A program made the position numbers and the translations under genes. From Thermoplasmata archaeon (GTDB taxonomy: Archaea; Thermoplasmatota; E2; JACPAO01; JAHFTW01): a DNA stretch of 64,000 nt. This document shows positions 18,421 through 57,541 of this stretch, one piece after another; within the stretch, counting starts at the first letter, position 1, and every line of letters starts with the position of its first letter. The notes beneath the pieces are model-generated. The model had not been told where the DNA came from, searched no databases, and saw nothing but the letters and a program-made list of their open reading frames with translations. Where the stretch lies: the NCBI GenBank assembly GCA_034667725.1, contig JAXDQS010000001.1:173593-237592 (forward strand), in the 5' to 3' direction.

Positions 18421-18522
18421 CCTGCACGCCAAGTTGCCTCTTTGCCCCAGAGGCACGGCCCTGCCGCGAACCTGGGGAAAGTCGGTGTTGCCTTGCCTGT
18501 CCGGGACCGTCCCATCGCCGCG

Positions 18523-22629: not shown

Positions 22630-22758
22630 GCCGCCGAAGCCGGGTACGGGTCCCACCAGACTTGTTCGATGGGGTTATCAAAAGGTGCCGTCATCGAAGG
22701 CCGCCCCGCCCAGAGAGGGACACCCAGGTCCCTCCTGGCAGTACCGAGGCTTCCGCCC

Positions 22759-29388: not shown

Positions 29389-29398
29389 CCCATCCTGC

Positions 29399-29600
29399 CG
29401 AGCCGGGGGCCGCCGCGCGCGTGAGCGCGCAGGACCGAGCACGCCCGCCTGCGCGAGCATCGCGAGCGCACGGGCCGAGGGCGCGGCCCCCTCGCCGTGG
29501 GGGCGCAGGGGGCGAAGCCCCCGCGCAGGCGGAACGAACCGCAGTTCGTTCCGAGCCGAACCTGTTCCTTGTCGTTTTAAATACTTCCCGGGATGGAGCG
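29399..29600 (+). repeat. Conserved GC-rich intergenic element, copy A (terminator-like hairpin + BRE/TATA), between giant genes 1 and 2
   Basis: ~200 nt aligning with 34291-34500 at roughly 80% identity by eye (CGAGCCGGGGGCCGCC.GCGCGTGAGCGC.CAGGAC…). A 9-bp-stem hairpin GGAACGAAC-cgcag-GTTCGTTCC lies at 29531-29552 and is followed by CCGAGCCGAACCTGTTCCTTGTCGTTTTAAATAC. Confidence 0.7.
29575..29584 (+). promoter_or_regulatory. Archaeal TATA box (TTTTAAATAC) with upstream purine-rich BRE-like CG, promoter of giant gene 2
   Basis: AT-rich TTTTAAATAC in an otherwise ~70% GC context, ~74 nt upstream of ATG 29658. An identical box precedes giant gene 3. Confidence 0.5.
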
Positions 29601-29657
29601 GACCAAGCACCGGACGCCGGACCTTAGGGCCCGGCTTCCGCCCGCAGGTTGATCCCC

Positions 29658-34196: not shown

Positions 34197-34290
34197 AGCC
34201 GAGACGGCCCTTTTTCCTTTCCTTCTCCCTGTTTTCGTCCCCACTGGACACAGATTCCACAGATTCGCTGGAAGCTGGCGGGTCGAGCGT

Positions 34291-34500
34291 CGAGCCGGGG
34301 GCCGCCGTGCGCGTGAGCGCACAGGACGAGCGGGCCGGCCCGTGCGAGCGAAGCGAGCGCGCCGGCGCGAGGAGCGGCCCCCAAGCCGGGGGGTCGCAGG
34401 GGCGCAGCCCCCGTTCCCAACAGGCGGGACGAACCGCGCAGCGTGTTCGTCCCGAGCCGAATCTGTTCCTTGGCGTTTTAAATACCCCCAGGATTGGATG
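34291..34500 (+). repeat. Conserved GC-rich intergenic element, copy B, between giant genes 2 and 3
   Basis: Same element as copy A. The hairpin GGGACGAAC-cgcgcagcgt-GTTCGTCCC at 34426-34453 shows compensatory A:T→G:C changes on both stem arms relative to copy A. It is followed by CCGAGCCGAATCTGTTCCTTGGCGTTTTAAATAC. Confidence 0.7.
34476..34485 (+). promoter_or_regulatory. Archaeal TATA box (TTTTAAATAC), promoter of giant gene 3
   Basis: Identical TATA sequence to the giant-2 promoter, ~36 nt upstream of ATG 34521. The conserved flanks are GTTCCTTG[G/T]CGTTTTAAATAC. Confidence 0.5.
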
Positions 34501-34520
34501 CCTTACCCCGCTGGTGGCGT

Positions 34521-37500
34521 ATGGTCAACCGAAAATCCGCGTCCCTCCCCTACGTGCTGGCTTTCCTGATGGTGTTCTCCATCTCGCAAGCCATCGTGCC
34601 CGAGGCGGAGGCAGGCGTCGCCCCCGCTGGCCTCATGAGCGTCTCCGTCGAGCCCAGCTTCACGACCAACGTCATCATGGTCAAGCAGGGCATCAGCGCC
34701 GAGCGCCTGGTGCGGGTGTCGCAGGGCGACCCGCTCAACCCGATGACGACCATCGAGTTCGTCTGGTTCATGCGCGACGACACTTCGACGCCGGCCTGCC
34801 GCGGCCCGCCGCGCGACCTGTGCGCCACGGCCGTCAAGTTCGACTGGATCAAGGAGACCAGCTACGCCATGCGCCCCGGCTGGAAGGTCGAGGCCGCCAC
34901 CTCCACGGCCGCCAAGATCCTCCGCTTCGTCTCCGACGGCACCCAGGAGCTGCGCTCGGGCACGCCGCAGGACTTCAACGTCGCCTTCAGCCAGCGCGGC
35001 GCCGCCCAGGACGACGAGTACCACATCCAGGTCCGCGGCTACTGCGGCGCCGAGTGCCAGCCCGGGGTCGCCTTCGAGACCACCTGCGCCAGCACCCGCG
35101 CCCCCGAGTTCACCTGCATCCACACCAACCCGCCCTTCACCGGCGCCGCCCCGATCCCCGCGGCGGACTGCAACGCGCCCTGCGGCCAGCTGCCGAGCCT
35201 GGTGCTGCGCATCGACAGCGTGCCCCCGGACCCGCCGGCGGTCATCATGCAGGACATCGACCACAACGGCCACATCGACCGCTTCGTGGCGGACTTCCCC
35301 AAGAAGCTCGACGCCAAGTCGTTCGACGCCCGCCTGTTCACCCTCACCGCCCGCGGCCGCCTGTTCGGCTCCAGCCTCACGGACGCCGGCTACACCATCC
35401 AGAACGCCTACTTCGTCAACCCGGACAACCCGGTGCGCGTGGTCTTCCTGGTCAACGAGATGCCGTACTACGACACCGGCGACCAGGTCAACCTGCGCTA
35501 CGCCGGCACCAGCCTGCGCGACGAGGCCGGCAACCCGCTGCGCGGCATCAACGTCCAGGCCACCGACCGCGCCCCGCCGGTCATCGTCGCCGCCTACGGC
35601 CTCCAGGGCTACGACGGCGTCCACGTGACCTTCAGCGAGCCGGTCGTCGGCACCGGCAACGCCCAGGACCCCGCCACCGGCGTCGGCCTGCAGGACCTGC
35701 TGTTCTTCGACGACGGCGGCAGCGCCCCCGACAGCAAGGTCGGCTGCCCCGCCGCGAGCCCGTGCGTCCTGAGCATCGCCGACTCCCGCTTCGGCGCCAT
35801 CACGCACCAGCCCGGCCCCCGCACCGGCCACCAGGCCACCATCAAGACCTCGATCAACCCGGTCACGAGCACGCCCTACACCTTCGGCCCCAACGACGTG
35901 CACCCGCTCAAGGGCGACATGCTCGGCGTCGCCTCCAGCGGCGCCGCCTGCGCCCCCGGCGAGGACCCGCCCTGCGACTCGAAGATCAAGGACGCGGCCG
36001 GCCTCAAGATGTGGCACCCGCTCACGGCCCCCGCGTCCGTCCGGCACATCACCCGCCCCCTCCTGGTGCGCGCCGAGGTCGACATCGGCTCCGACGCCCT
36101 CAAGCTCTGGTTCAACGGCCCCGTGCGCGCCGCCAAGGAGCCCGGCGTCACGACGCCCCAGCCGATCTCGGTGTCCAACATGGACATCGTGACGGCGGCC
36201 GGCACCGGCGTCGGCCCCCAGGGCCTCATCGGCGACTACTTCCGCGCCGTCGACCAGGACTTCATCGTCGTCAAGCTCGACGCCAAGGCCCGCCCCACCG
36301 ACGTCGACGCGACCCCGACCTCGATCCGCCCGCACTGCAAGAAGATCGTCGGCAGCGGCCTCCCCGAGACCAACGACCAGGCGTTCCTGCCGTGCGACAA
36401 CCCGGACCTGTTCTACGAGCAGGAAGCCCGCGTCAAGGGCACCGGCACCTTGGACGCCAAGGGCCGCGACCACGACCTGCCGTCGCCCGGCGCCGCCTTC
36501 GTGGACGACACGCCGCCGCGCATCGTCCAGGTCCGCACCGTGGACACCGACCACAACGGCTGGCTCGACGGCCTCGAGCTCACCATGAGCGAGCCCGTGG
36601 ACGACGTCACGTTCTGCTCGAACGCCAACACCGCCCCCAACTTCTGCCCCGACTCCTGGACCCCGGTCGGCGGCATCTCCCAGGTCGGCCTCGTGATGAT
36701 GCAGAACCTGCGCGCCACCGACGACCGCTCGCAGGAGTGCCTCGGCCTCTACCGCTGGGAGACCGGCCTGGTGGTCAACGACAACGTCGGCATCATCAAG
36801 GCCATCAACGTCGAGCGCAGCCCCACCGGCGAGTACATCGTGACCAGCCGCGACTGCGTCGAGCGCTACTTCAACCAGGACACCGGCATCCGCATGGACA
36901 CCGGCCACCTGCCGACCTTCACCACCACGGCGCGCGGCCTGTTCGCCGACCTGTCGGTGCCGGAGAACCGGATGCCGCAGTACTGCCAGCTGCAGCGCCT
37001 CACCCACTTCCACCACCCGGACGCCGCCACCACCAAGGACTGCGGCCTCCTGGCCAGCACCAAGGCGCAGTACACCGCCCCCGTCTCCGACGGCGCCCCG
37101 CCGGTCGTCATGGCCGCCCGCACCGTGGACACGCCCGCCGTCAACAAGGACGGCATCCCGGACAAGCCCGCCGTGAACCTCTGGGGCGACGGCCGCATCG
37201 ACGGCTACCGCCTCACCATGAGCGAGTCCGTCAAGGACTCCACCTTCGACCGCCGCGACTGGCTGGTGCAGCGCCTCGGCGCCGCGCAGGCCCCGATCCA
37301 CGAGGTCAACGGCTTCCGCAGCTACGACCTCAACGAGACCCTGGGCGCGCTGCGCTCCAACGACCGCGAGCTCACGGTGCTGTTCAACCCGGACACGGTG
37401 CCCGACACGGACGCCCGCCCCGAGCTGACCTACCGCCGCGACCCCGACAGCAAGGGCCTCGCGGACATCGTCGGCAACGTCATGGTGGACTTCGACGAGT

Positions 37501-39284
37501 TCGCCGTGGTCGAGCAGGACGACTCCCGCCCCGTCATCGTGGGCATCGAAGGCTACGTCGGCGAGCGTGTCCTGACCCTCCACTTCAGCGAGCCCGTGGA
37601 CGACGGCGCCCAAGGCAAGCTGGTGTCGGAGGACTTCTTCTACCACAACAACGACGCGACCACGAACCCCGGCGGTGTTGCCGGCAAGGCGGTGTCCAAC
37701 CCGGAGACGGGACAGGCGGTCAACGTCATCCACGTCCCCGACGTCGACTGCACCGGCAACCTCGAAGAGGACGCCGACGGCTGCAACGAGAAGGCCATCA
37801 TCCCGCTCGACCGCGCCCTCACCAACTCCGACCTGACCACCGACCGCATCAACGCGGAGAAGGACACCATCTACGAGAAGGCCCCCACCGTGGTGCCGGT
37901 GCAGCGCAAGGCGGTGCCGAACTTCCAGCAGAAGCTGTCGGTCGGCGCCGACGTGACGCCCCCGGCCAAGGTCACGGACCTGCGCGTGCAGACCGACGCC
38001 GTGCTCGCCAACTCGGTGCTGCTGGCCTGGACCGCGCCCGCGGACGACAGCCTGGCCGGCGGCGCCGTGACGAGCTACGTCTTCAAGGTGTCCACCAGCG
38101 CCATCGACCCCGCCGGCTTCGACGCCTTGGTCAACCCGAACGGCATCACGCCCGAGTTCGAGCCCGCCGCCATGGCGGCGGTCAACCAGACGCAGACCCT
38201 GCGCCTCGTCGGCTTGAACCCGACCACCCAGTACCACTTCGCCATCCGCGCCGTGGACGAGGCGGGCAACGCCGGCGGCGTCTCCAACGCCGTCACGGCG
38301 CTCACCTCGCGCGACGCCACGGCGCCCGTCGGCACCCTCACGGTCTCGAGCACCAGCCACAAGGCCGGCGAGACGGCCCCCAAGGTGCAGGGCATCTTCT
38401 CGTGGAACAAGCTGGAGGACCCCGAGTCCACCGTCGTGTACCGCTACGCCCTGACCGGCAGCCCCGCCTACCAGGTGCTGGCCGCCGACAAGTCCGTGAC
38501 CGGCACCAGCGTCACCGTCGACATCCCCTCCGAAGGCGACTGGACGTTCCACGTCGCGGCCTTCAGCGGCGGCGGCTCGACCCCGACGGCGCACTTCTCG
38601 TTCGGCCGCGGCTCCCCCGTGCTGGCGGCGGACGCCATCGCCGCCGCCAACGACCGCCTCAAGGACAACGTCGAGATCGTCCGCAAGCCCGTCGAGATCC
38701 AGGACGGCGTCGAGGTCGACCTCAACACCATCACCTGGACCCTGCCGCCCGAGTCGGACCTGCCCGGCACCCTCGAGGCCATCGAGATCTGGCGCCTCGA
38801 CGCCGGCATCCCGACCCTGGTCACGACCCAGCCCGGCAGCTACAGCGAGCTCAAGAGCGGCAACTTCACGGACGTCACCCAAGGCGCGGACGAGAACTCG
38901 CTCTACCGCGTCAACATGGTGTTCGCGCAGGACCAGCGCCAAGCCGACCCAAGCGTCTCCGGCCAGTTCAAGGCCCTCCAGAACCAGACGCCCGGCGAAA
39001 TCCCCGCCTGGGTCTACGTCCTGGCAGGCATCGCGCTGGCGTTGATCATCGCGGGCATCATCATCTACTTCGTGCTGCGCGGCCGCCAGAAGGCCGCCGC
39101 GGCCGGAGGGGTGGCGTACTCGTGGGAGTCGGCCGACCCGGAGGCCCTCGGCATCGACGAGGCCACCGGCCTGCCGGTCCACGAGGTCAAGTGCCCGTCG
39201 TGCAACAACCCGTTCCAGGCGGTGGGCGTCCTGCCCCTGCCGGTGACGTGCCCGACGTGCCAGACGACGGGCATGCTGGAGTAA
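34521..39284 (+). CDS. Giant type-I membrane surface protein paralog 3 (1587 aa) with identical C-terminal TM + zinc-ribbon architecture
   Basis: Signal/anchor MVNRKSASLPYVLAFLMVFSISQAIVPEAEA. Repeats carry DIDHNGHIDRFVADFPKKLD, DTDHNGWLDGLELTMSEPVDD and WGDGRIDGYRLTMSESVKD. FN3-like region (…VLLAWTAPADDS…). TM VYVLAGIALALIIAGIIIYFVL, then a tail …ATGLPVHEVKCPSCNNPFQAVGVLPLPVTCPTCQTTGMLE. Confidence 0.8.
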   Translation: MVNRKSASLPYVLAFLMVFSISQAIVPEAEAGVAPAGLMSVSVEPSFTTNVIMVKQGISAERLVRVSQGDPLNPMTTIEFVWFMRDDTSTPACRGPPRDLCATAVKFDWIKETSYAMRPGWKVEAATSTAAKILRFVSDGTQELRSGTPQDFNVAFSQRGAAQDDEYHIQVRGYCGAECQPGVAFETTCASTRAPEFTCIHTNPPFTGAAPIPAADCNAPCGQLPSLVLRIDSVPPDPPAVIMQDIDHNGHIDRFVADFPKKLDAKSFDARLFTLTARGRLFGSSLTDAGYTIQNAYFVNPDNPVRVVFLVNEMPYYDTGDQVNLRYAGTSLRDEAGNPLRGINVQATDRAPPVIVAAYGLQGYDGVHVTFSEPVVGTGNAQDPATGVGLQDLLFFDDGGSAPDSKVGCPAASPCVLSIADSRFGAITHQPGPRTGHQATIKTSINPVTSTPYTFGPNDVHPLKGDMLGVASSGAACAPGEDPPCDSKIKDAAGLKMWHPLTAPASVRHITRPLLVRAEVDIGSDALKLWFNGPVRAAKEPGVTTPQPISVSNMDIVTAAGTGVGPQGLIGDYFRAVDQDFIVVKLDAKARPTDVDATPTSIRPHCKKIVGSGLPETNDQAFLPCDNPDLFYEQEARVKGTGTLDAKGRDHDLPSPGAAFVDDTPPRIVQVRTVDTDHNGWLDGLELTMSEPVDDVTFCSNANTAPNFCPDSWTPVGGISQVGLVMMQNLRATDDRSQECLGLYRWETGLVVNDNVGIIKAINVERSPTGEYIVTSRDCVERYFNQDTGIRMDTGHLPTFTTTARGLFADLSVPENRMPQYCQLQRLTHFHHPDAATTKDCGLLASTKAQYTAPVSDGAPPVVMAARTVDTPAVNKDGIPDKPAVNLWGDGRIDGYRLTMSESVKDSTFDRRDWLVQRLGAAQAPIHEVNGFRSYDLNETLGALRSNDRELTVLFNPDTVPDTDARPELTYRRDPDSKGLADIVGNVMVDFDEFAVVEQDDSRPVIVGIEGYVGERVLTLHFSEPVDDGAQGKLVSEDFFYHNNDATTNPGGVAGKAVSNPETGQAVNVIHVPDVDCTGNLEEDADGCNEKAIIPLDRALTNSDLTTDRINAEKDTIYEKAPTVVPVQRKAVPNFQQKLSVGADVTPPAKVTDLRVQTDAVLANSVLLAWTAPADDSLAGGAVTSYVFKVSTSAIDPAGFDALVNPNGITPEFEPAAMAAVNQTQTLRLVGLNPTTQYHFAIRAVDEAGNAGGVSNAVTALTSRDATAPVGTLTVSSTSHKAGETAPKVQGIFSWNKLEDPESTVVYRYALTGSPAYQVLAADKSVTGTSVTVDIPSEGDWTFHVAAFSGGGSTPTAHFSFGRGSPVLAADAIAAANDRLKDNVEIVRKPVEIQDGVEVDLNTITWTLPPESDLPGTLEAIEIWRLDAGIPTLVTTQPGSYSELKSGNFTDVTQGADENSLYRVNMVFAQDQRQADPSVSGQFKALQNQTPGEIPAWVYVLAGIALALIIAGIIIYFVLRGRQKAAAAGGVAYSWESADPEALGIDEATGLPVHEVKCPSCNNPFQAVGVLPLPVTCPTCQTTGMLE

Positions 39285-47290: not shown

Positions 47291-50200
47291 ATGCCGGACC
47301 TCAACCCGACGAACCGGAGGCCGCAGGACCTGAGGAGCGCCACGGGCAGCCCGGCCGCCCCGTCGGTCCCCTCCACTTCTGCCATCCCTTCCCCTGCGAC
47401 GCCCACGGTGCCTTCCATGCCAGACTCCCCCACGACCCCGTCCATCCCCATCGCCCCGTCGAGCCCGCTGACGCCCCCGTCGGCCCCCTCGGGCGGCACT
47501 CCAAGCCCACCGTCCCCCTCCGGGCTGCTGCTGGCCGCGCTGCAGAGCGCCACCGTCACGCCCTCCCGCGTCGCCTTGAAGCCCGGCCAGCCGTTCGCGC
47601 CGCAGCTCCAGCTCCCCGGCGCCGTCCTGGCCACGACCCCCGCCGGCCCGACGGCGCTGGACGTGGGCGCCATGGCCAAGGTTCGGTGGCAGGCCTACCC
47701 GGCCAAGGCCGACGGCACGCCGGACTACGCCAACCCCATGCCGCAGCGCCAAGCCACGCTGGTCGGCCCCGTCCACAGCCGGACGCCGACGTTCCTGTTC
47801 CGGCCGCGCATCCTGGGGGACGCCGACCCTGCCACGGCGACCCCGGCGTTCGTGGTGGCCCACCTGGAGGCCATGGCGGACGGCCTCGCGGTCCGGCACG
47901 ACATCCCCATCCCCGTGGACCTGGAGCCCATGGCCACCCGCGAGGTCTACGGCCAGCTGGGCCGCCTGTTCAAGGTCCAGGTCTCCGCCCCCGCCGTGCC
48001 GGCCGGCGGCATCCTGCGCGCCTCCATCCTGCCCCGCGGCGCCGAGGAGACGGAGTTCGTCGTCAAGACCGCCTCGCTCCAGGGCAAGCCCATCCTGGAG
48101 GTCACGGGCAGCGTGGGCCTGGACGGCGCCATGACCGCCCTCAACGCCATCGCGGGCAGGTCCGCCGCCCCCGGCGCCTTCGCGCTGCACGACGTGGCCA
48201 CTTCGATCGCCATCCTGAACGACCCTGCCGAGCGCGTGGCCGCGACCCTGGCGATGCTGGGCGAGCCCATCGACCGCCTGGCCGGCGTCATGGCGCTTCT
48301 GAGCGAGCCCACCGACCGGGTCGCCGCCACGCTGGCGATGTTGAGCGAGCCCGTCGACCGCGTCGCCTCCGCCCTGGCCCTGGCCTCCCTGCCGGTGGAC
48401 AAGATCGCTGACGTGGCCGCCGTCCTGCTGATCCCCCTGGACCGCATCGCGGGCATCATCGGCCTCTTGAGCGAGCCGTTCGAGGAGGTCGCCCGGGCGC
48501 TCCACTTGCTTGGCTACCCCGCCGAGAAGGTGGCGCAGGCCCTCGCCATGCTGGTGGAGCCGGTGGCCGGGGCCGTCAGCGTCGTGAGCGCCTTCATCGG
48601 CAAGGGCTCCGGCTTCGACGTGGACGCCGGCGACCTGACCCGCCAGGCCACCCCCGTCCTGGGAGGCGCCAGCCGTCTGGGCGACACGGCCGGCACCGTC
48701 GGCGCCCTGCTGGACACCAGCGACCTGCGCCGCCGCATCGCCTCCATCCTGGCGTCCACCGACGTCAAGGGGCAGGTCCGCGCCATGATGCAGGCCCCCG
48801 GGTTCCAGGAGCGCACGCGGGCCATCCTCGACGACCGCGGCCTGCCGGAACGGCTCGCGGCCGTGCTCGACAACAAGGACTCCATGCGCCGGCTACGGCC
48901 CCTCCAGCAGACGGGCCAGGGCAGCGACCGCGGGGCTGCCGTCCTGGCCGGGAAGGGCCGGCTGGAGCGCATGCAGGCCCAGGCCGCCCGCGACGGCGTG
49001 GCCCGCGGCGTGCAGCTCCCCATCAACGTCCAGGTCAAGAACGCCGACTTCACCAAGCACCTCGTCCGCCGCGAGGACGAGGACCCGGTGTACAAGCTGA
49101 CGCCCAGGGCCCGCCAGCTCCCCGAGGTGCCCGGCCTGGTGGACGAGATGCAGGTCGCCGACCGGCTGCCCGACGGGGTCGCGGCCTTCGAGGCGGGGCC
49201 GCTGCGGCTGCCGTTCTCCATCAAGGGCGCCACCTGGCAGCTCTTCCGGTCCCCCGGCGAGCGGGACGAACTGCCCGCCTCCCGCTACCGCTTCGCCGAG
49301 GGCACCGCGGGGCGGAACCTGGTCCGGTCGCTCCAGCTCGGCGTCCCCGAGGCTGACACGGTCCTGCGCCTCGTCGTCAAGCTCCAGTTCGGCTTCGACC
49401 CGAACCAGGTGGCCGCCGAGGGGCTGCCGCCGCTGCCGGACTCTTGGGTTGCGCTGCCCGACGTCCCGCTGCGTTGGCTAGGCGCCGACGTGCTGGACCT
49501 CGTGGCCCAGCAAATCACCCTGTCCGCCCCGGCCACGGTGCCGCCCGGCGGCCCCGTCCCCGCCAGCCTTGCCTGCCCCCTGTTCGCGCAGGCCGACCCG
49601 GCCGCCACCGAGGTCGGCGGCACCGCCACCCTCGGGGAGGGCGTGCCGGTGCCCTTCAAGATTACCAACGTCCAGTGGCGCCTCTTGGACACGACGGGGC
49701 AGGAACGGCAGCGGGACGCCGGCCGCACCGGCTTCGCCGCCCTGGCCGCCCGCCTGGACGCCGGGCTCCCCAGCACGGACGAGACCTGCGTGCTGGAGGC
49801 CTCGTTCCGCCTCCAGGCCGGCGACGGCGGCCTCGTGCCGACGACGCAAGGGGACGCGCCCTTGACCCTGCGCACCGCCCTGAGGATCGAGGGGGTGGAC
49901 GTCCTCGGGCTGCTGCTGTCCCAGATCTCCCTGGACGCGCCGGCCACGGTGCCCGCCGGCGCCACGGCCACCCTAGGCGTCCTGTCCCCCTTGCTGCCCG
50001 ACGGGCTCCCCGCCGGGGGCGCCACCGTGCGCCTGGCCATCGCGGGCGGCCCCGGCCTTCCCGTCCAGTTGGCGGACCCCGTGTGGGAGGTCAAGGACGA
50101 GGCGGGCCAAGCGGCCAACCTGCCTGTGCTGCCGCCCCAGGACACGACGCGCACCGTCGCGCTGTCGTTCGAGGCCCGGCCCACCGGCCTTCCCCCCACC

Positions 50201-52636
50201 CGTGTCCGGCTGGGGCCGGTGCGGATTCGCTTCCTGGGGCTCGACCTGGAGGCCGCCTTGCGCAGGCAGCTTGCCATCGGCTGCCCCGCCCGGCTGGCGC
50301 CTCTCGCGCCCTTGGCCGTGCGCCTGGATGGCGCCGTGCTGGAGGACAAGGCCATCCCGTTGGGCGTCGGCGTGCCCGCCTTGCCCATCGCGCTCGCCGG
50401 CGTCCAATGGAGCCTCAAGCGCAGGGACGGCTCGGCGGCCCCGGGCCAAGCCCTGCCGTCGCAGGCGCCGCAGGAGCAGTCCTACGGCATGCCGCTTCTG
50501 GCCGAGGACACGGCGCTTGCGCTGGAGGCCCAGGTCCGCCTCCAGGCCGGCGGCTTCGGCCCCATCCCCGTCCGCGAGGTGTCCCTGACCCTCCAGGCCG
50601 CGGTCACGGTGGCCGGCCTGGACGTCGGCAAGGCGTTGGGCGATGCCCTGCACATCCAGGCGCCTGCGTCTGTGGCTCCCGGCAAGCCGGTCGTCGCCCG
50701 GCTGGAGTCGCACCTCTTCCAGGCCACGGACGGCGCCACCGGCCTGCTCCCCGTGCCCGACGGCCCCGGCCTGCCCTTCGAGGTGCGGCGCGTGGACTGG
50801 ACCCTGGTCCCATCCAGCGGGCAGGCCCTCGCCGCCACGGGCGCGGGTCCCACGGTCCGGCAGGCCACGCTCGGCTCCCTGCTGCCCGAGGCCTCCACGG
50901 AGGCCATCGTCGGCGCCACCGTGATTGCCGCGGTCGCGGGCCAGGAGTTGGCGGCCCTCCGGCTGCCCCCTGTTCCCATCCAGTTGGGCGGCCTCGACCT
51001 GGTGCAGGCCGCCTTGGCGCAGCAGCTCCGCGTCGAGGTGCCGGCGACATCGCCCAAGATCGGGGACCACATCCAGGCGACCTTGACGGGGGCTGGCCTT
51101 GACTCCACCCCGGACGCGCTGGCCGGGACGCTCGGCGGCGACCTGCCGCTGCCGTTCAAGGTGTCCGCGGTCGCCTGGTCCTTGGAGCAGGCCGGCGGCG
51201 GCGCCGTCCCGGTGGCGACGGACCCCGAGCAGATGCGGACGCACACCTTCGACGCGCTGCTGCCGGACACCACGGTCCCCTGGTGGGTCCGGGCCAGCCT
51301 CACCGTGCAGGTGGACGGGCTGCGCGGCACGCCCGTCGAACGCCAGCTCGAGCTGCGGTCGCGGCCCCTGCGCATCCCTGGTGTGGACCTGGTGCGCGCC
51401 GCCGTGGTCGGCAAGCTCCGCCCGACCATCAAGGGAAACGAAGAGCCCGGCGGCTGGGTGGAGGTCGGCCTCGACGCCGACTTCCCGCTTCAGCCCAACG
51501 GCCCGAATCTGCGGGGAGTGAGGCTTGGAGTGGGGCGGCCGATGGTCGCCGGCCATCCCGTCGAGATTCTCGTGAGGCTGCAGGCCGGCGGTTCCGGGCT
51601 GGCTGGCGAACGCCCGTGCCTGGCCCGGTCCAAGGACAACCTAACATGGGAGCTCCTGTTCGCGCCGGAGGTGGCCATCCGGCCGGCCGGGCCCGCCACC
51701 CGCCCCGTGAAGGTACAGTTTGGTGTCTACATGCGCCACCCCCAGACGGGCGACGTTGTGACCTTGCACGTGGAACAGTCCGAGTCCATCGTGTTGGTTC
51801 CCCCGATCCAGTTGCCGGCGCTGGCGGCCGCCGTGGAGGAAGGCAAGATCGCCTGCATCGCGGTCCCCGACTACTACCGCTTTTGGCACGTGGACGGCTG
51901 GGAAAGCCTGGCGGACACCCTGAAGGCGGCCCGCAAGCAGGTCGAGGGGGTCCTTGAGGCCCTGCGGGCGAAAGGGGCGTCCACTTCCGACGTCGAGCCC
52001 TACTCGGTGACGGCGGAGGCCCTTCGCCTCATCCTGGACGCCAGCGGGGGCGCGGAGGCGTTCCGCTTCATGCGGAGAACCGGCGACATCTATTCCCACC
52101 CGGCCGACGAGGACATCAAGGCCGCCCAGAGTTGGCTGCTCGCCGTCCCGCAGTTCGGGGAAAGGATGGCCCTCGTGGCATTCACGCGCAGCACGTTCGG
52201 CATGACCACCCATGCCCAGATGGGCGGGGACATGGCAAGGGAGGTGGCGATGGCCCGGGGAAGTCCGTTCGACCTCTTGGAGCGCCTTGGCGAGTTGATG
52301 AAATCCCGCTACTTCTGGGACCGCTTCACGCGCCTGCCCAGCGCGCCGCCGGTCCTCATCCGCTACGACCTCCAGAACCCGGATGGCGTCTGGGAGGACG
52401 CACGGGCCCAGTTCGAGGCGGTGTACGCCGAGCCCCAGCCGCCCGTGCCGGCCGTCCGCCTGCTGCCGCCCCGCGGCTACCGCGCCGAATGGGACTTCAG
52501 GATGGGCGGCAAGAAGCGGGAGGGAAGCGCCGACCTGGCATCCGCTGGCAACCCGGACTTCCGGATGACCAAGGGCGGGTGGGACCGGCGTTTCATCGAC
52601 CAGTTGAACCTGTCGCCCCCCGAACCGGAGGCCTGA
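47291..52636 (+). CDS. Large (1781 aa) hypothetical repeat protein, no signal peptide or TM
   Basis: Pro/Ser-rich N-terminus. A run of 11-residue repeats follows (LAMLGEPIDRLAGV / MALLSEPTDRVAAT / LAMLSEPVDRVASA …; 33-nt period, ~48240-48560). Then six or more ~130-aa repeats share …LDAPATVPAG…LG…LPDG…PF[KE]V..V.W.L…. The ~230-aa C-terminus is non-repetitive. No family assignment is possible by eye. Confidence 0.55.
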   Translation: MPDLNPTNRRPQDLRSATGSPAAPSVPSTSAIPSPATPTVPSMPDSPTTPSIPIAPSSPLTPPSAPSGGTPSPPSPSGLLLAALQSATVTPSRVALKPGQPFAPQLQLPGAVLATTPAGPTALDVGAMAKVRWQAYPAKADGTPDYANPMPQRQATLVGPVHSRTPTFLFRPRILGDADPATATPAFVVAHLEAMADGLAVRHDIPIPVDLEPMATREVYGQLGRLFKVQVSAPAVPAGGILRASILPRGAEETEFVVKTASLQGKPILEVTGSVGLDGAMTALNAIAGRSAAPGAFALHDVATSIAILNDPAERVAATLAMLGEPIDRLAGVMALLSEPTDRVAATLAMLSEPVDRVASALALASLPVDKIADVAAVLLIPLDRIAGIIGLLSEPFEEVARALHLLGYPAEKVAQALAMLVEPVAGAVSVVSAFIGKGSGFDVDAGDLTRQATPVLGGASRLGDTAGTVGALLDTSDLRRRIASILASTDVKGQVRAMMQAPGFQERTRAILDDRGLPERLAAVLDNKDSMRRLRPLQQTGQGSDRGAAVLAGKGRLERMQAQAARDGVARGVQLPINVQVKNADFTKHLVRREDEDPVYKLTPRARQLPEVPGLVDEMQVADRLPDGVAAFEAGPLRLPFSIKGATWQLFRSPGERDELPASRYRFAEGTAGRNLVRSLQLGVPEADTVLRLVVKLQFGFDPNQVAAEGLPPLPDSWVALPDVPLRWLGADVLDLVAQQITLSAPATVPPGGPVPASLACPLFAQADPAATEVGGTATLGEGVPVPFKITNVQWRLLDTTGQERQRDAGRTGFAALAARLDAGLPSTDETCVLEASFRLQAGDGGLVPTTQGDAPLTLRTALRIEGVDVLGLLLSQISLDAPATVPAGATATLGVLSPLLPDGLPAGGATVRLAIAGGPGLPVQLADPVWEVKDEAGQAANLPVLPPQDTTRTVALSFEARPTGLPPTRVRLGPVRIRFLGLDLEAALRRQLAIGCPARLAPLAPLAVRLDGAVLEDKAIPLGVGVPALPIALAGVQWSLKRRDGSAAPGQALPSQAPQEQSYGMPLLAEDTALALEAQVRLQAGGFGPIPVREVSLTLQAAVTVAGLDVGKALGDALHIQAPASVAPGKPVVARLESHLFQATDGATGLLPVPDGPGLPFEVRRVDWTLVPSSGQALAATGAGPTVRQATLGSLLPEASTEAIVGATVIAAVAGQELAALRLPPVPIQLGGLDLVQAALAQQLRVEVPATSPKIGDHIQATLTGAGLDSTPDALAGTLGGDLPLPFKVSAVAWSLEQAGGGAVPVATDPEQMRTHTFDALLPDTTVPWWVRASLTVQVDGLRGTPVERQLELRSRPLRIPGVDLVRAAVVGKLRPTIKGNEEPGGWVEVGLDADFPLQPNGPNLRGVRLGVGRPMVAGHPVEILVRLQAGGSGLAGERPCLARSKDNLTWELLFAPEVAIRPAGPATRPVKVQFGVYMRHPQTGDVVTLHVEQSESIVLVPPIQLPALAAAVEEGKIACIAVPDYYRFWHVDGWESLADTLKAARKQVEGVLEALRAKGASTSDVEPYSVTAEALRLILDASGGAEAFRFMRRTGDIYSHPADEDIKAAQSWLLAVPQFGERMALVAFTRSTFGMTTHAQMGGDMAREVAMARGSPFDLLERLGELMKSRYFWDRFTRLPSAPPVLIRYDLQNPDGVWEDARAQFEAVYAEPQPPVPAVRLLPPRGYRAEWDFRMGGKKREGSADLASAGNPDFRMTKGGWDRRFIDQLNLSPPEPEA
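48240..48560 (+). repeat. 33-nt (11-codon) tandem periodic repeat inside the 1781-aa gene
   Basis: About nine or ten consecutive 11-aa units of consensus [LA]-[AL]-[ML]-L-[SG]-E-P-[VIT]-D-R-[VL]-A. Confidence 0.5.
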
Positions 52637-52645
52637 CGGCGGCAC

Positions 52646-53752
52646 TCACCCGCCCCAGCACGCCCGCAGCCCGTCCAAGCCGGCGTCCGTGCGCACGCCC
52701 TGCGCGTCGAGGTGCGCGCGCGCCGCCGCGAAGCCGGCCGCCCGCAGCCGCGCGATCAGCACGTCGCGGCGCGGCGGCGGCCCCAGCCGCTTCTGGAACA
52801 GATCGGGCTCGACCCAGAACGCGGGCGCGTCCGCCTCCTCGGTGAACAAGGCCAAGAGCGCGTCCGCCTCCTTCGGGCGGGCCAACTGCTTGCCCTCGCG
52901 CGCGGCGCGCATCGCGGCCACCAGGCCGGCGTCGTGCAGCGGGCCGCCCCACAGCGGCCCCGCCCACTTGCCGTCGGGGACCTCGTGCGCCGGCGCCATG
53001 CGGCCGAGGCCGTCGGCGTCCAGCACGGCGTTCCGGAGGCCGCGCAGCCCGTCGTCGGTGTCCTTCTTGCCCTCCTCGACGCGCGCCACCACGCGCATCC
53101 AGTGGCCCGAGGCGATGGAGAGCACGGGAGTCGCGACCCGCTCGAAGCGCGCCGCCGACCGCACCAGCGCGCCGCCCAGCACCCGCAGGCCCACCTCGGC
53201 GCGCCACGGCGCCGGGTGCAGGCCGTGGTGGGCGTCGTAGCGGCGGCGGCAGACGCGCGGGAACTTGCCGGCCAAGGCGCCGGTGTCGGTGGCGGTGGCG
53301 CACACCAAGGCGCCGACGCGGGCGGCGCGCATCGCGGCGTCCACGAACGGCATCGGGCTGCCGCAAGGATCCAGGTCGATGACGTCGAAGCGCTGCGTGG
53401 CCAGGAAGGCGTGCGCGTCGCCCTCGTGGATGCGCAGCCGGGCGCCGACGGGATGGGCACGCATGGCCGCGACGCCGCGCGGGTCGGCGTCGTTGGCGTG
53501 CACGATGATGGGCGCCTCGACCTCGCCGGTCAGGCGCAGGCTGCGCGCGCCGGTGCCCGCGAGCGCGTCGGCCACGTCGATCTCGCGCCCCCGCGCGCGG
53601 GCGAACGCCTCCACCAGCAGGACCGAGAGGTCGCGGTTGAGCGCCATGCCTGGGTTGTAGAACGGCTGTCCCTTGGCGCGCTCGCCCGGCTGGCGCGGCC
53701 CCTTCTGCAGGTTGGCGGGCGGCGGGAACAGGCGGGTGGCGCCCTCCATCAT
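52646..53752 (-). CDS. trm1: tRNA (guanine26-N2)-dimethyltransferase Trm1
   Basis: Trm1 motifs FYNPGMALNRDLSVL, …DALAGTGARSLR… and …VIDLDPCGSP…. ATG start at 53752 (MMEGATRLF…). The upstream part of the track ORF is unlikely to be coding. Confidence 0.8.
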   Translation of the reverse strand: MMEGATRLFPPPANLQKGPRQPGERAKGQPFYNPGMALNRDLSVLLVEAFARARGREIDVADALAGTGARSLRLTGEVEAPIIVHANDADPRGVAAMRAHPVGARLRIHEGDAHAFLATQRFDVIDLDPCGSPMPFVDAAMRAARVGALVCATATDTGALAGKFPRVCRRRYDAHHGLHPAPWRAEVGLRVLGGALVRSAARFERVATPVLSIASGHWMRVVARVEEGKKDTDDGLRGLRNAVLDADGLGRMAPAHEVPDGKWAGPLWGGPLHDAGLVAAMRAAREGKQLARPKEADALLALFTEEADAPAFWVEPDLFQKRLGPPPRRDVLIARLRAAGFAAARAHLDAQGVRTDAGLDGLRACWGG

Positions 53753-53783
53753 GCCGTCCACAAGGGGGCCACGACGAGGCGCG

Positions 53784-55724
53784 TTATCGGCTTGATGGCC
53801 TCCGCCGGGAGGGCTTCTTGGGTGGGGCGGAGTTGAGGTTTTCCAGACGCCCTTCGATGTCAGCAATCCAGTCTGCCTGCGGGCCGTGCAGGCGCTTTTC
53901 TGCGGCCAGCGACCGGAGCGTCTGGAGGTTCTCTTCCAGGAGGGTGCGGGTGCGTTCCCGATCAATGCCCGCCTTCCCGCCTTCGGCAAGCATGACGAAC
54001 CGCATTTTGGAGACCACGAGGTCCGTCTGCCATTGGGCGTTTGCCTGGTCTTTGGCGGCCAGTCGTTGCGCGATGGCGAGGCTGTCCTGGTAGGCCGTCA
54101 GGGCGGCCGGGAGGTTGCCTTGCGCTTGGAGGATGTCGCCGATTTTGTTGTGGCTGATGCTGAGGTCGCGTTGCCACTCGGTGTTGGCGGGGTCCTTGGC
54201 GGCCAGGGTTTGGCGAAGGGCGAGGCTGCCCTGGTAGGCCGTCAGGGCCGCCGGGAGGTTGCCCTGCGCCTGGTGGATGCCGCCGATCTTCTCGTGGCTG
54301 ACGCTGAGGTCACGTTGCGAGTCGGTGTTGGCGGGGTCCTTGGCGGCCAGGGTTTGGCGAAGGGCGAGGCTGTCCTGGTAGGCCGTCAGGGCCGCCAGGA
54401 GGTTGCCCTGCGCTTGGAGGATGTCGCCAATCTTCTCGTGGCTGATGCTGAGGTCGCGTTGCCACTGGGTGTTGGCAGGGTCCTTGGCGGCCAGTCGTTG
54501 CGCGATGGCGAGGCTGTCCTGGTAGGCCGTCAGGGCCGCCAGGAGGTTGCCCTGCGCCTGGTGGATGCCGCCGATGTTGTCGTGGCTGACGCTGAGGTCG
54601 CGTTGCCACTGGGTGTTGGCGGGGTCCTTGGCGGCCAGTCGTTGCGCGATGGCGAGGTTGTCCTGGTAGGCCGTCAGGGCCGCCGGGAGGTTGCCCTGCG
54701 CCTGGTGGATGCCGCCGATTTTGTTGTGGCTGACGCTAAGGCGGCGCAGCCAACCGTTGCCTCGGGCCTTGGCCACTGCCGTCTCCGCCACCGAAAAGGC
54801 TTCCCTATACGATGCCAAAGCCGCCATCGAATCACCTTGGCTGGCCAGGAGGCCCCCAAGCTCCTCGTGGGCAATCCAGACGGTTTCCGGTTCCCCAAGG
54901 CCCTCGGCAATCGTCAGGAGTTGCTGGTACTGCGCGGCAGCCTTGCCTGAGAGCCCGATGCGTCGCAGGAAGGCCCCGTACTCTTGCAGGAACGAGGGCG
55001 CCGGGAACGTCGCCACCGCCTTCGCGTAGGCCTCCTCCGCCAGGGTGAACTCGTGCTTGGCCAGATGTTCCCTTGCTTTTGCCTCCAAAACCTTCGCCGC
55101 CTGGAACTGGCGGTTCCCTTCGAGCTTGGCCGGGTCATGGACGACTAGGTCTTTGGAAGGATGTGCGACTGGGGCGATGTCGTTGGTCGGCGGGGCGGCC
55201 AACTCCCCGTCCGCCCTCTTGTCCAGCCAGTTGCAAAGACGCTTCCGAAGCTCGCCCGACCAGTCCTCCTCGCCTTGGTAGCGGGCGTAGAGGGTCTTCT
55301 GCTCCTTCTCAAGCCTCGCCTTGAAGACCAAGACCTTCTGAAGCTGCGGCCCGGCGTCCGCCAACTGGTCGTCCGGGACGCTGCGGAAGTAGACCAGGAT
55401 ATGCTTCCCCGCCTCCTTGGCGACGTGGAACTCCTCCTCGGTGCCGGACGAGAACTTGTCCGTCGGCGTCCCCCACCGCTTCCAGAACACCAGGACGCAG
55501 AGGTCGCACTCTCGCACGTCCTTGTTGATGAGATCCTGGGCGCGGGTGCCGTGGCCTGGAAGGGTGTCTTCCCATCCGATGCCCTCCAGGTGGAGGCCTA
55601 TGGGGTGGGCCTTCAGGCCGTTGACCTCCTCGATGACACGGGTGAATTGTTTCCGTTCCTCGGGGACGTCGTTGGGGGAGCCAATGAAGACGTGAAGAAC
55701 CTCGTACTGCTTGGGACGGGCCAC
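53784..55724 (-). CDS. DUF4062 (TIR/SLOG-like) N-terminal domain fused to an array of near-identical TPR-like repeats
   Basis: The N-terminus YEVLHVFIGSPNDVPEERKQFTRVIEEV…CDLCVLVFWKRWGT matches the DUF4062 pattern (VFISS..D…ER…, …CD.[FV][IV]). A 42-aa unit then repeats about six times (LAALTAYQDSLAIAQRLAAKDPANTQWQRDLSVSHDKIGGIHQAQGN). Confidence 0.7.
   Translation of the reverse strand: MARPKQYEVLHVFIGSPNDVPEERKQFTRVIEEVNGLKAHPIGLHLEGIGWEDTLPGHGTRAQDLINKDVRECDLCVLVFWKRWGTPTDKFSSGTEEEFHVAKEAGKHILVYFRSVPDDQLADAGPQLQKVLVFKARLEKEQKTLYARYQGEEDWSGELRKRLCNWLDKRADGELAAPPTNDIAPVAHPSKDLVVHDPAKLEGNRQFQAAKVLEAKAREHLAKHEFTLAEEAYAKAVATFPAPSFLQEYGAFLRRIGLSGKAAAQYQQLLTIAEGLGEPETVWIAHEELGGLLASQGDSMAALASYREAFSVAETAVAKARGNGWLRRLSVSHNKIGGIHQAQGNLPAALTAYQDNLAIAQRLAAKDPANTQWQRDLSVSHDNIGGIHQAQGNLLAALTAYQDSLAIAQRLAAKDPANTQWQRDLSISHEKIGDILQAQGNLLAALTAYQDSLALRQTLAAKDPANTDSQRDLSVSHEKIGGIHQAQGNLPAALTAYQGSLALRQTLAAKDPANTEWQRDLSISHNKIGDILQAQGNLPAALTAYQDSLAIAQRLAAKDQANAQWQTDLVVSKMRFVMLAEGGKAGIDRERTRTLLEENLQTLRSLAAEKRLHGPQADWIADIEGRLENLNSAPPKKPSRRRPSSR
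54040..54750 (+). repeat. 126-bp near-identical tandem direct repeats (~6 copies) encoding the TPR-like array
   Basis: GGTCCTTGGCGGCCAG[GGTTTGGCGAAGGGC/TCGTTGCGCGATGGC]GAGGCTGTCCTGGTAGGCCGTCAGGGCCGCC[A/G]GGAGGTTGCCCTGCGC…TGGCTGA[CT]GCTGAGGTC[AG]CGTTGC… recurs with only a few substitutions per copy. Confidence 0.7.
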
Positions 55725-55744
55725 ATTCCAACACGACTGGCTTC

Positions 55745-55755
55745 CCCTATATCGT
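55745..55755 (-). promoter_or_regulatory. Putative TATA box for the DUF4062-TPR gene (leaderless-type spacing)
   Basis: On the minus strand, CGATATAGGGG is centred ~27 nt upstream of ATG 55724 in a GC-rich background. Confidence 0.35.
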
Positions 55756-55813
55756 CGGATTGGCTAATGATGGGCCAAATGCCGTTTTCGATACGCACTC
55801 TCGCGAGCGCGCT

Positions 55814-56389
55814 TCATGGCGCCACCGCGGCCGGGCGCATGGACTCGGGGCCGGTGCAAGGCGGCCGCCCCGCGTCGAACGAGGTGCGAATCTCGCCCTT
55901 GGGCGGCGGATCAGGCCAACTGTGGAAGCGGCGGTGCCAGCGGTGGCCGCGCACCAGGTCGTGGAAGAACTTCTCGTGGTCCCACTCGACCTCGGCCATG
56001 CCCAAGAGCTCGTCGGCGAAGTCCGCGCGCTCGGCTTGCAGGGCGAGGCGGGCGGCGACCTCGTACTCCCAGATGTTGCGGCGCTCGATGCGGCCGGCGC
56101 CATACATCGGGACGTACCAGCCGCCGACGAAGCACGAGGCCGCGATGGCGGTGCCGACCGTCCCCATCCAGAGGTCGCGCGGCTTGCCGGGGCGGGCGCC
56201 GAGCTCGCGCATCATCTCGCCGACGCGGGCGCGGTGGGCGAGCTCCTCGCGCATGATGCGCTGGATGTCCACCTTCTGCCCCTTGTCGCGCACCGAGCGC
56301 CAATGGCCGGCGTAGGCGCGCGCCGCCGCCAGCTCGCCGGCGTAGGCCAGGCGGAGCCGGTGCACCAAGGCGTCCCGGGCGGCGGTCAT
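55814..56389 (-). CDS. Ferritin-like/rubrerythrin-family diiron-fold protein (hypothetical)
   Basis: 191 aa. Has LAYAGELAAARAYAGHW…IMREELAHRARVGEMMRELG… helical E..H pairs reminiscent of ferritin-like four-helix bundles. Family assignment is tentative. Confidence 0.45.
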   Translation of the reverse strand: MTAARDALVHRLRLAYAGELAAARAYAGHWRSVRDKGQKVDIQRIMREELAHRARVGEMMRELGARPGKPRDLWMGTVGTAIAASCFVGGWYVPMYGAGRIERRNIWEYEVAARLALQAERADFADELLGMAEVEWDHEKFFHDLVRGHRWHRRFHSWPDPPPKGEIRTSFDAGRPPCTGPESMRPAAVAP

Positions 56390-56422
56390 CCCGGGCTTGG
56401 GGGGCCTTCGCGCCGGAAAAGG

Positions 56423-56689
56423 CTACTGCCGCTCGTGCGGCCGGCCCTCGACGTCGATGACGTCCTCCCGTTGCTTGCGGGCGGACTGGGCGGCGGCCGC
56501 GCCGAACACCATGCCCCACCTGCGGACCTCGCGGCGCACCTTGCGCTTGACGTACCAGACGGCGAACAGGGCCAGCAGGAACAGGCCGAGGATGGTGCCG
56601 CCCACGATGGCGGCGACCACGCCGAGGCCGTTGAGGCCCCAGACGGCGATGACCACGATCAGGACAATGAGCAGCAGGACAGGCAGCAT
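56423..56689 (-). CDS. Small two-TM membrane protein
   Basis: 88 aa. Two hydrophobic helices (MLPVLLLIVLIVVIAVWGL…, ILGLFLLALFAVWYV) followed by a basic tail. Confidence 0.4.
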   Translation of the reverse strand: MLPVLLLIVLIVVIAVWGLNGLGVVAAIVGGTILGLFLLALFAVWYVKRKVRREVRRWGMVFGAAAAQSARKQREDVIDVEGRPHERQ

Positions 56690-56734
56690 CGGCTCAGGGC
56701 GTTGTGGCGGTCTTGGGTGATAGCGCTTGCGGGC

Positions 56735-56910
56735 TCAGGCGTGCAGGCGGCGGCCGCTGCGGAAGTGGCCGGTGAGCAGCCCGATGACGATGAGCGCGAC
56801 CACGACGATCAGGATGAGCTTGAGCGTGCCCGCGACGACGTTCATGAACAGCAGCGGGCCCATGAGGACCACGAGCAGGACGATCGCGAGGATCAGCAGC
56901 AAGGATGCCA
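56735..56910 (-). CDS. Small hydrophobic membrane protein (58 aa; below the ORF-track length cut-off)
   Basis: Manual translation gives MASLLLILAIVLLVVLMGPLLFMNVVAGTLKLILIVVVALIVIGLLTGHFRSGRRLHA*, two predicted TM helices. It lies adjacent to the other small membrane ORF. Confidence 0.3.
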
Positions 56911-56968
56911 TGATTCTTCTTCGGCGACGGCCCCAGTCAACCCTTTCCCACGGAAGGCGCGGCCCGCT

Positions 56969-57541
56969 TCAGTAATAGCTCGTCTGAAGGTGGTCCTTCA
57001 TGAGCTTCTCGATCTTGTAAGGCAGGAGGTTCTTGTTCACCGGCGTGACCTCCAGGATGCGCACGTCGTCGCGGCGCCGCAGGTCCTGCAGGAGCGGGTT
57101 GCGGCTTTTCTTGTGCAGCGTCATGATGACGGGCTTCGGGCAGTCCAGCGCCAGCTTTACGACGTCGTTGAACTTCTCGGAGTGCATCTCCATCTTGCCG
57201 ACCTCGTCGATGATGATGATGTCCACCTCCTCGTCCTGGATGGCGTCGCGCACCGCCTTGACCCCGATGCGGTCGAGCGGGTCCAAGTCCACGAAGTAGT
57301 CGCCGTCGTCGGTCTCGGCCTTGTACTTCGTCTTGAACTCCTTGGAGGCGAACACCTCCTTCTCGCCGGTGCGCCAGTCCTCGACGTAGAAGCCGATGCG
57401 GACGGTGCCGTCGCCGGGACGGTAGGCGCGCGTGATCATGCCGCCGACGATGAAGTCGTCGCGCTCGAGCTTGCGGCAGATGGCGGCCAGCGTCGCGGTC
57501 TTGCCCACGTTGGGAAGGCCCGTGATGCCGATCTTTGGCAT
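56969..57541 (-). CDS. THEP1-type nucleoside-triphosphatase (COG1618)
   Basis: Walker A GLPNVGKT (IGITGLPNVGKTATL), Walker B IIIIDEVGKME. The ~190-aa size and K-rich composition are typical of the archaeal THEP1 family. Confidence 0.8.
   Translation of the reverse strand: MPKIGITGLPNVGKTATLAAICRKLERDDFIVGGMITRAYRPGDGTVRIGFYVEDWRTGEKEVFASKEFKTKYKAETDDGDYFVDLDPLDRIGVKAVRDAIQDEEVDIIIIDEVGKMEMHSEKFNDVVKLALDCPKPVIMTLHKKSRNPLLQDLRRRDDVRILEVTPVNKNLLPYKIEKLMKDHLQTSYY

Follow-up and report, generated by a model that had tools for sequence, protein, structure and literature searches.

A gene on a contig of a Thermoplasmata archaeon (JAXDQS010000001.1, assembly GCA_034667725.1) encodes a protein in which an N-terminal NIR domain (DUF4062) is fused directly to a TPR solenoid. 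The window, i.e. the whole stretch of DNA analyzed, comprises 64,000 nucleotides (contig positions 173,593 to 237,592), and all coordinates refer to it. The protein shows a 100% match to NCBI MEA3189599.1 (P0051), a 'hypothetical protein' from a metagenome-assembled genome (MAG) of a Thermoplasmata archaeon. On sequence grounds, this entry may be annotated as a putative NIR-family NADase with TPR sensor. Chances are slightly better than even that it acts as a single-protein sensor-effector, an abortive-infection protein depleting nicotinamide adenine dinucleotide (NAD+) in response to a TPR-sensed trigger. The gene is composed of the following parts, given with amino acid (aa) positions and, where modelled, the predicted local distance difference test (pLDDT) score:

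53784..55724, minus strand: NIR(DUF4062)-TPR gene, from the list of open reading frames (ORFs); 646 aa, GTG start
55212..55703, minus strand: NIR/DUF4062 domain, aa 8-171 (Pfam PF13271, PADLOC PDC-S60, AlphaFold, match to KpSwz)
55437..55439, minus strand: codon for Glu96, predicted as catalytic from the KpSwz alignment and from conservation; motif S93-G-T-E96-E-E-F
55134..55211, minus strand: linker, aa 172-197, with a core (aa 179-196) of predicted disorder, pLDDT <50 in the full-length model
54753..55133, minus strand: divergent N-terminal TPR-like helical hairpins, aa 198-324 (modelled helices 198-318)
54033..54752, minus strand: five tandem repeats of 144 bp or 48 aa, aa 325-564 (Tandem Repeats Finder, autocorrelation, pairwise identities)
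53832..54032, minus strand: C-terminal capping helices, aa 565-631 (modelled helices 563-631)
53784..53831, minus strand: basic disordered tail PPKKPSRRRPSSR, aa 632-646 (pLDDT <50 for aa 640-646), and stop codon

By sequence comparison, the N-terminal domain is a true member of DUF4062, as an initial annotation of the DNA had proposed. The Pfam profile PF13271 matches aa 12-102 with 36.2 bits (E=7e-9; profile positions 2-82 of 82), above the curated gathering cut-off of 24.7 bits. The PADLOC candidate profile PDC-S60 covers the same domain (E=2.6e-26, profile positions 4-169 of 906). In AlphaFold models of the domain (pLDDT 83 and 91), five beta-strands and helices follow each other in alternation. 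At aa 53-62, in the place of the BB loop of TIR domains, a loop is modelled with low confidence. The only solved protein found by sequence search is KpSwz (PDB 10wc; also 11cq and 11cv; 'KpSwz TIR/DUF4062'). It is the sole PDB match obtained with the single sequence (E=0.48) and the sole meaningful one obtained with a 39-sequence profile (E=0.056). The match is limited to the NIR domain and runs collinearly over VF.S..DL.EER, R.G and S.TE. An ungapped alignment of S-x-T-E places S-F-T-E97 of KpSwz on S-G-T-E96, and Glu96 is the counterpart of the catalytic E97. It is conserved in at least 90% of the homologs; in a subfamily sample of 80 sequences, the next two residues of the query, E97/E98, are invariant and TEEEF is nearly so. 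In the modelled five-strand beta-alpha fold, Glu96 lies at the start of the third helix, the same topology as described for KpSwz.

The biochemistry of the domain has been described in three preprints. DUF4062 is a TIR-like NADase, and its fold has been linked to TIR and nucleoside 2-deoxyribosyltransferase folds. In KpSwz, the protein of the Swarozyc system, E97 is required, a phage portal protein serves as activator, and NAD+ is depleted in abortive infection. Human TEP1 is also a NADase (Osinski et al., 2026, bioRxiv 10.64898/2026.05.01.722283). DUF4062 was renamed NIR in a study reporting NAD+ depletion by NIR-Avs2, Vulcan and Vesta. In Vulcan, NIR is fused directly to HEAT repeats, and a small lambda protein acts as trigger. 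Genes for NIR proteins were found near defence genes in 20.0% of cases, 3.9% being expected (Le Mouellic et al., 2026, bioRxiv 10.64898/2026.09.04.749371). Evangelion is a plasmid-borne, NAD+-depleting NIR family (Ibarra-Chavez et al., 2026, preprint). The catalytic glutamate corresponds to E97 in KpSwz, E98 in Vulcan, E108 in PsAvs2 and E1008 in TEP1, the first three being needed for both defence and NADase activity. The conserved glutamate is required in the four systems whose mutants were consulted, Swarozyc, NIR-Avs2, Vulcan and Vesta. The grouping of DUF4062 with TIR-like conflict-system domains, made in the initial annotation, is borne out by these reports of a TIR-like NADase immune effector.

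The AlphaFold model of the entire protein (mean pLDDT 90.8) is divided into four parts, an alpha/beta domain, a linker, an all-helical solenoid (aa 198-631) and a basic tail. Just 26 linker residues separate the NIR domain from the solenoid in the model, and a P-loop domain is absent. Pfam, NCBIfam and PADLOC scans identified no NTPase family or other domain in the protein. Without a STAND or P-loop NTPase, any assembly would proceed without nucleotide-driven oligomerisation. The first hairpins of the solenoid (aa 198-324) share about 10% identity with the repeat unit and contain traces of TPR_16 and TPR_NPHP3 in Pfam. The C-terminal half yields strong Pfam matches to TPR_12 and TPR_10, and also to TPR_1 and TPR_2; HEAT is not matched. 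In sequence comparison, the capping helices are conserved in an ortholog (P0099, 'WQTDLV.S...LHGPQ..WI'). The best Foldseek matches of the solenoid are the TPR domains of LGN/Pins, with template modelling scores of 0.78-0.83 on the target, and TPRs of OGT were found as well. A sequence search of the repeat array against the PDB gave no match.

The repeats had initially been described as six units of 126 bp, encoding 42 aa each. A tandem DNA repeat is indeed present and highly significant, and consists of five units of 144 bp. Tandem Repeats Finder reported a period of 144 bp with 5.0 copies and 89% matches (score 1099, 54018..54741). DNA autocorrelation reaches 0.75 at a lag of 144, in comparison to a background of 0.34 at 126. 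Self-matches of the protein peak at a lag of 48 only (166, versus 24 at a lag of 42). In the model, each unit is a hairpin of two helices, 20 and then 21 residues long, joined by a 3-residue turn and followed by a DPAN loop. The 48-residue spacing is held in all related proteins examined.

Pairwise identities among the five units amount to 81-93% for DNA and 75-88% for amino acid sequence, while the flanking hairpins are 4-17% identical to the units. Synonymous divergence (dS) among the copies amounts to 0.09-0.46, and the ratio of nonsynonymous to synonymous divergence (dN/dS) to 0.30-0.73. The description of the copies as almost identical at the nucleotide level was therefore overstated: the dS values characterize repeats that are similar, neither near-identical nor demonstrably very young. 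Of the two origins initially offered, a very recent expansion is not favored by this divergence, and concerted evolution agrees with the comparison of orthologs. Repeat identity within a protein is 0.82 in the query and 0.85 in P0099, but 0.51 between the two, a pattern that fits concerted evolution or repeat reshuffling. Within the unit, 17 of 48 positions vary and occur in mosaic combinations (GGIHQ/GDILQ, NLP/NLL, IAQRL/LRQTL). In the literature on NLR repeats, high internal conservation has been linked to rapid diversification via unit reshuffling. An instability of the repeat copy number, as initially predicted, could not be demonstrated. The only other copy of the gene (L007, found via P0316) has the same DNA sequence over 5.9 kb (100% identity) and probably derives from the same genome, hence it is not independent evidence on copy number. 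A metagenome scan for close relatives with other repeat numbers retrieved only distant proteins (28-46% identical).

A profile search with the N-terminal domain retrieved 14,504 cluster representatives at E<=0.001, of which 2,566 remained at the stricter limit of E<=1e-30. The domain composition was surveyed in the best 79 long representatives and the query (n=80). DUF4062 was present in all 80, TPR arrays in 50, HEAT repeats in 16, and an extra TIR_2 domain in three. The direct NIR-TPR fusion is thus the commonest architecture of this NIR subfamily. In the accessible portions of the three NIR preprints, this fusion is not described, and 'TPR' appears only in figure abbreviations. The N-terminal part of PDC-S60 was matched by 79 of the 80 relatives, its full length by none.

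In a search with the whole protein, the 48-residue repeat 'WQRDLSVSH.KIGDVL.AQG....AL.AY..SL.I...LA..DP.N..' proved to belong to a very large family. The modules located N-terminally of such arrays were counted manually in the match table. Among the 120 best matches listed, they comprise about 35 TIR_2, 14 caspase, about 24 STAND NTPase, four kinase, four trypsin-like, one SIR2 and six DUF4062 domains. Judged from these sequences, the N-terminal modules of 48-residue arrays are interchangeable. Some of the bacterial TIR_2-TPR and DUF4062-TPR proteins (P0123, P0105, P0057) contain 8-10 almost letter-identical 48-residue units, an internal conservation far above that of the Thermoplasmata protein. 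Many TIR_2-TPR versions have an apparent transmembrane segment separating the TIR domain from the repeats.

Homologs of the NIR domain occur in 160 plasmid records and on four IMG/VR viral contigs; a phage genome collection gave no match to the domain. On the IMG/VR contigs (L015-L018, viral or proviral), the NIR relatives are 34-38% identical to the query domain. The bacterial relatives examined on long contigs are solitary. One of them, P0018 (L009 10001..12218), is cut by an insertion sequence encoding a DDE transposase and stops at 312 aa; truncations of this kind explain many short-looking database homologs of the N-terminal domain.

The gene is located in a gap between two genes, encoding a THEP1-type NTPase and the tRNA methyltransferase Trm1. 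The features of this region are:

52646..53752, minus strand: trm1, tRNA m2,2G26 methyltransferase, downstream anchor (Pfam TRM, E=1.9e-67)
55746..55753, minus strand: AT-rich GATATAGG, possible archaeal TATA box, read from the sequence, its centre about 26 nt before the GTG
55814..56389, minus strand: COQ7-like ferritin-fold gene (Pfam COQ7, E=3e-9; no PADLOC match)
56423..56689, minus strand: gene for an 88-aa membrane protein (no PADLOC match)
56969..57541, minus strand: THEP1-type NTPase gene, upstream anchor (Pfam NTPase_1, E=5e-44)

A single true ortholog was found. P0099 (580 aa) is 52% identical in the NIR domain, contains three 48-residue units and shares the C-terminal cap. Its gene is situated on a 5.6-kb metagenome contig (L001), where THEP1 and trm1 flank it as well. 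In five other Thermoplasmatota genomes (L002-L006), THEP1 lies directly upstream of trm1, and no NIR-TPR gene is present at the junction within the flanks fetched. The content of the gap varies. It is shortest in L006 (15 bp), followed by L003 and L005 with about 360-380 bp; in L002 and L004 it extends over 1.1-1.5 kb and contains small membrane proteins. In L001 it holds the NIR-TPR gene and a gene for an 87-aa membrane protein, and in the query (53753..56968, 3.2 kb) the 88-aa membrane protein, COQ7-like and NIR-TPR genes. The small membrane proteins in the gaps of L001, L002 and L004 are similar to that of the query, and the gene order within the gap differs between the two NIR-TPR carriers. 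Trm1 identity between the query and L001 is 0.66, no higher than to genomes without NIR-TPR (0.66-0.71); by this measure, the query lineage and L001 are not sister lineages. Across the related genomes, Trm1 proteins share 63-75% identity.

As the opposing case, the initial annotation had named a TPR scaffold protein of generic flavodoxin-like fold with conserved orthologs in non-defence contexts. An ortholog in the same non-defence context does exist in L001, but five genomes of equal relatedness lack the gene, which characterizes NIR-TPR as accessory rather than as a conserved scaffold protein. The base composition of the gene is atypical as well. Its GC content is 0.652, and the GC content at third codon positions (GC3) is 0.84 in the query and 0.76 in L001, whereas neighbouring genes range from 0.88 (a helix-turn-helix regulator) to 0.98 and are mostly above 0.9, in the query mostly at 0.94-0.98. 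Patchy presence, differing gap content and low GC3 together identify the NIR-TPR gene as an accessory element at a variable spot. The distribution would be explained by more than one gain, by exchange between lineages or by repeated loss. A recent bacterial transfer into the query genome alone was considered and dropped, given the ortholog (52% N-domain identity) at the same junction of another archaeal contig; the best bacterial matches of the N-domain reach 49-51% identity only.

The THEP1 gene itself is conserved to an unusual degree. Across the five other Thermoplasmatota MAGs (L002-L006), its identity reaches 91-96% at the protein and 85-90% at the DNA level, while the adjacent Trm1 is just 63-75% identical. 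Its GC contents at first and second codon positions are 0.59 and 0.32, very low for a genome of 72% GC. This conservation could reflect unusually strong constraint or recent spread. THEP1 could also serve as recombination anchor for the adjoining variable spot.

The position directly upstream of trm1 was confirmed, while co-transcription, proposed at the same time, is plausible only. The stop codon of the NIR-TPR gene and the ATG of trm1 (53752) are 31 nt apart, with neither a T-run nor a clear TATA box in between, and read-through into trm1 is plausible from this arrangement. Upstream of the NIR-TPR gene, the AT-rich GATATAGG suggests an own promoter and a leaderless mRNA. The surrounding genes encode RimK, an AstE-like enzyme, an acyl-CoA dehydrogenase, a thiolase, a surface protein with PKD/TSP3 and a 1781-aa protein without family assignment, besides Trm1, the COQ7-like protein, the 88-aa membrane protein, the THEP1 NTPase, the helix-turn-helix regulator, DJ-1/PfpI and TFB. 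The picture of a lone effector-plus-repeat module in a housekeeping neighbourhood was upheld by Pfam and PADLOC scans of these neighbours. The comparison with PADLOC, recommended in the initial annotation, was positive for the N-terminal domain (PDC-S60) and gave no credible defence protein among the neighbours. The search for partner effector genes, likewise recommended, found no candidate in the same scans. In PADLOC, the helix-turn-helix regulator matched Csa3/CasR, and THEP1 matched mad8/PD-T4-6. Both matches are weak and partial, the former to DNA-binding regulators and the latter of a P-loop NTPase, and were discounted as generic.

In the proposed mechanism, the NIR NADase would be held inactive in the resting state. 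Binding of a foreign, probably viral, protein in the TPR groove would bring NIR domains together or free them from inhibition. Hydrolysis of NAD+, dependent on Glu96, would then arrest the cell. By analogy with the published systems, NADase activity, a trigger, activation by assembly and an antiviral role may be expected of the protein. The mosaic, internally conserved repeats would permit a fast change of binding specificity via unit reshuffling. As an accessory gene, NIR-TPR would have been inserted between THEP1 and trm1 in a few Thermoplasmatota lineages. Family membership, the aligned Glu96, the fold topology and the published NIR experiments count in favor of the sensor-effector. So do the TPR and HEAT relatives, the swapped N-terminal modules and the repeat pattern, and further the accessory status, the low GC3 and the plasmid and viral homologs.

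Several observations weigh against the sensor-effector. In sequence, the domain resembles KpSwz, the NIR protein of solved structure, only weakly (E=0.056-0.48). A Foldseek search of the N-domain model against the PDB returned only generic Rossmann-like folds, flavodoxin and GTPases (SelB, Rab) and, at rank 2, the CMP N-glycosidase BcmB; neither KpSwz nor a TIR structure was among these matches. An hhalign comparison of the 80-sequence NIR alignment with 17 TIR_2 domains of TPR proteins was not significant (probability 0.6%), and the TIR relationship rests accordingly on the published structures. Positive selection on the repeats is not demonstrated by the dN/dS values between copies. Pfam and PADLOC detected no known defence gene in the approximately 25 kb examined around the gene, and the relatives inspected on long contigs likewise sit among metabolic genes.

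Some eukaryotic NIR proteins (NWD1, NWD2, NPHP3) lack detectable NADase activity and may have other roles. This point, too, counts against a sensor-effector and leads to the alternative of a non-immune cellular role, in which the protein would act in the physiology of its own cell as a regulated hydrolase of NAD(P)+ or of nucleotides, or as a catalytically silent interaction scaffold. Such a role would suit the housekeeping setting without defence genes and the ortholog at the same trm1-adjoining position in a second archaeon, and the published count places about 80% of prokaryotic NIR genes away from known defence genes. It is nevertheless unlikely: the catalytic motif is preserved and hardly varies among homologs, the absence from five equally related genomes and the atypical GC3 are unlike a core function, and the repeat array is common to TIR, caspase and STAND proteins. 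Production of an NAD+-derived messenger, as known from the TIR proteins of Thoeris, with activation of an effector encoded elsewhere, appears improbable. All NIR domains assayed so far released only ADP-ribose and nicotinamide, TEP1 yielding no other derivatives, and neither the query neighbourhood nor L001 encodes a candidate partner effector. In support of a messenger, TIR-like folds can yield signals of the cyclic ADP-ribose type, a possibility that the NIR authors raise for some NIR domains, and TPR domains have been proposed in the literature to take part in TIR signalling.

A functional coupling to THEP1 and trm1 would imply co-transcription with an action on tRNA or RNA, e.g. on NAD-linked RNA ends, or a regulation of Trm1. 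The shared strand, the 31-nt gap to trm1 without T-run and the recurrence of the adjacency in L001 agree with it. Coupling is nonetheless very improbable, as THEP1 and trm1 adjoin without NIR-TPR in five related genomes, the gene order in the gap differs between the two carriers, none of the bacterial relatives examined is linked to trm1, and the NIR-TPR gene appears to have its own TATA-like element.

Beyond the sensor-effector as such, a more specific proposal is put forward tentatively, at somewhat less than an even chance. The protein would be an archaeal NTPase-free immune receptor, whose 48-residue TPR array recognises proteins of Thermoplasmatota viruses and switches on the NIR NADase for abortive infection by NAD+ depletion, whose specificity is reshuffled, and whose gene moves via a THEP1-anchored recombination hotspot. 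If the protein is active, NIR/DUF4062 NADase immunity would be extended to Archaea, having been known so far from bacteria only, besides the NADase activity of human TEP1. It would also be extended to the direct NIR-TPR fusion without NTPase. Thousands of proteins of the TIR, caspase, kinase and STAND types share the 48-residue array, so that a trigger or a structure for one protein would inform many others.

Elsewhere in the window, the 1781-aa protein mentioned above is encoded by an ORF at 47291..52636 on the plus strand. It has a GC3 of 0.94, as typical for coding sequence, and no Pfam or PADLOC match. Near aa 330-450 it contains a series of short units similar to 'LAMLSEPVDRVA', recurring about every 11 residues. 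Four consecutive giant genes are located at 18421..39284 on the plus strand (1403, 2253, 1523 and 1601 codons from stop to stop, GC3 0.98). Only traces of fn3, TSP3 and BNR domains were detected in them, and the group is probably a surface-protein cluster.

In comparison with known systems, the closest analogue is Vulcan. Both proteins have an N-terminal NIR domain with catalytic glutamate fused directly to a C-terminal alpha-solenoid, are encoded by a single gene and lack an NTPase. HEAT-repeat relatives, the architecture of Vulcan, are also present in the NIR subfamily of the query (16/80). Vulcan differs in having HEAT repeats, whereas the archaeal protein has a TPR array with a 48-residue period. 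Vulcan is bacterial and the host of the NIR-TPR protein an archaeon, the likeness being one of architecture. Swarozyc (KpSwz) belongs to the same Pfam family with aligned motifs including the catalytic glutamate, although the similarity is very distant. Its C-terminal winged-helix AUX domain wraps the phage portal, in place of the all-helical TPR solenoid. NIR-Avs2 and other NLR-like STAND proteins follow the same logic of effector and repeat sensor, and the 48-residue repeat family occurs in AAA_16/nSTAND proteins as well. They differ by a central NTPase module (NACHT, NB-ARC or AAA_16), which is absent here.

The array resembles the internally conserved arrays of fungal and bacterial NLRs, with tandem helical hairpins, 75-88% identity and mosaic variation at a subset of positions. 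The TPR-like class of Marold et al. (2015, as cited in bioRxiv 10.1101/2020.01.06.895854) has a period of 42 residues, in contrast to 48 in the present array, which is not of the 34-residue period either. PDC-S60 corresponds to the N-terminal ~165 residues, the rest of its 906-position profile being unrelated to the TPR array; a literature search for PDC-S60 found none. After the 2026 papers, the NIR-TPR protein is unsurprising to a specialist and is not a new kind of system. Its points of interest are the archaeal host, the NIR-TPR architecture and a class of 48-residue repeats without solved structure.

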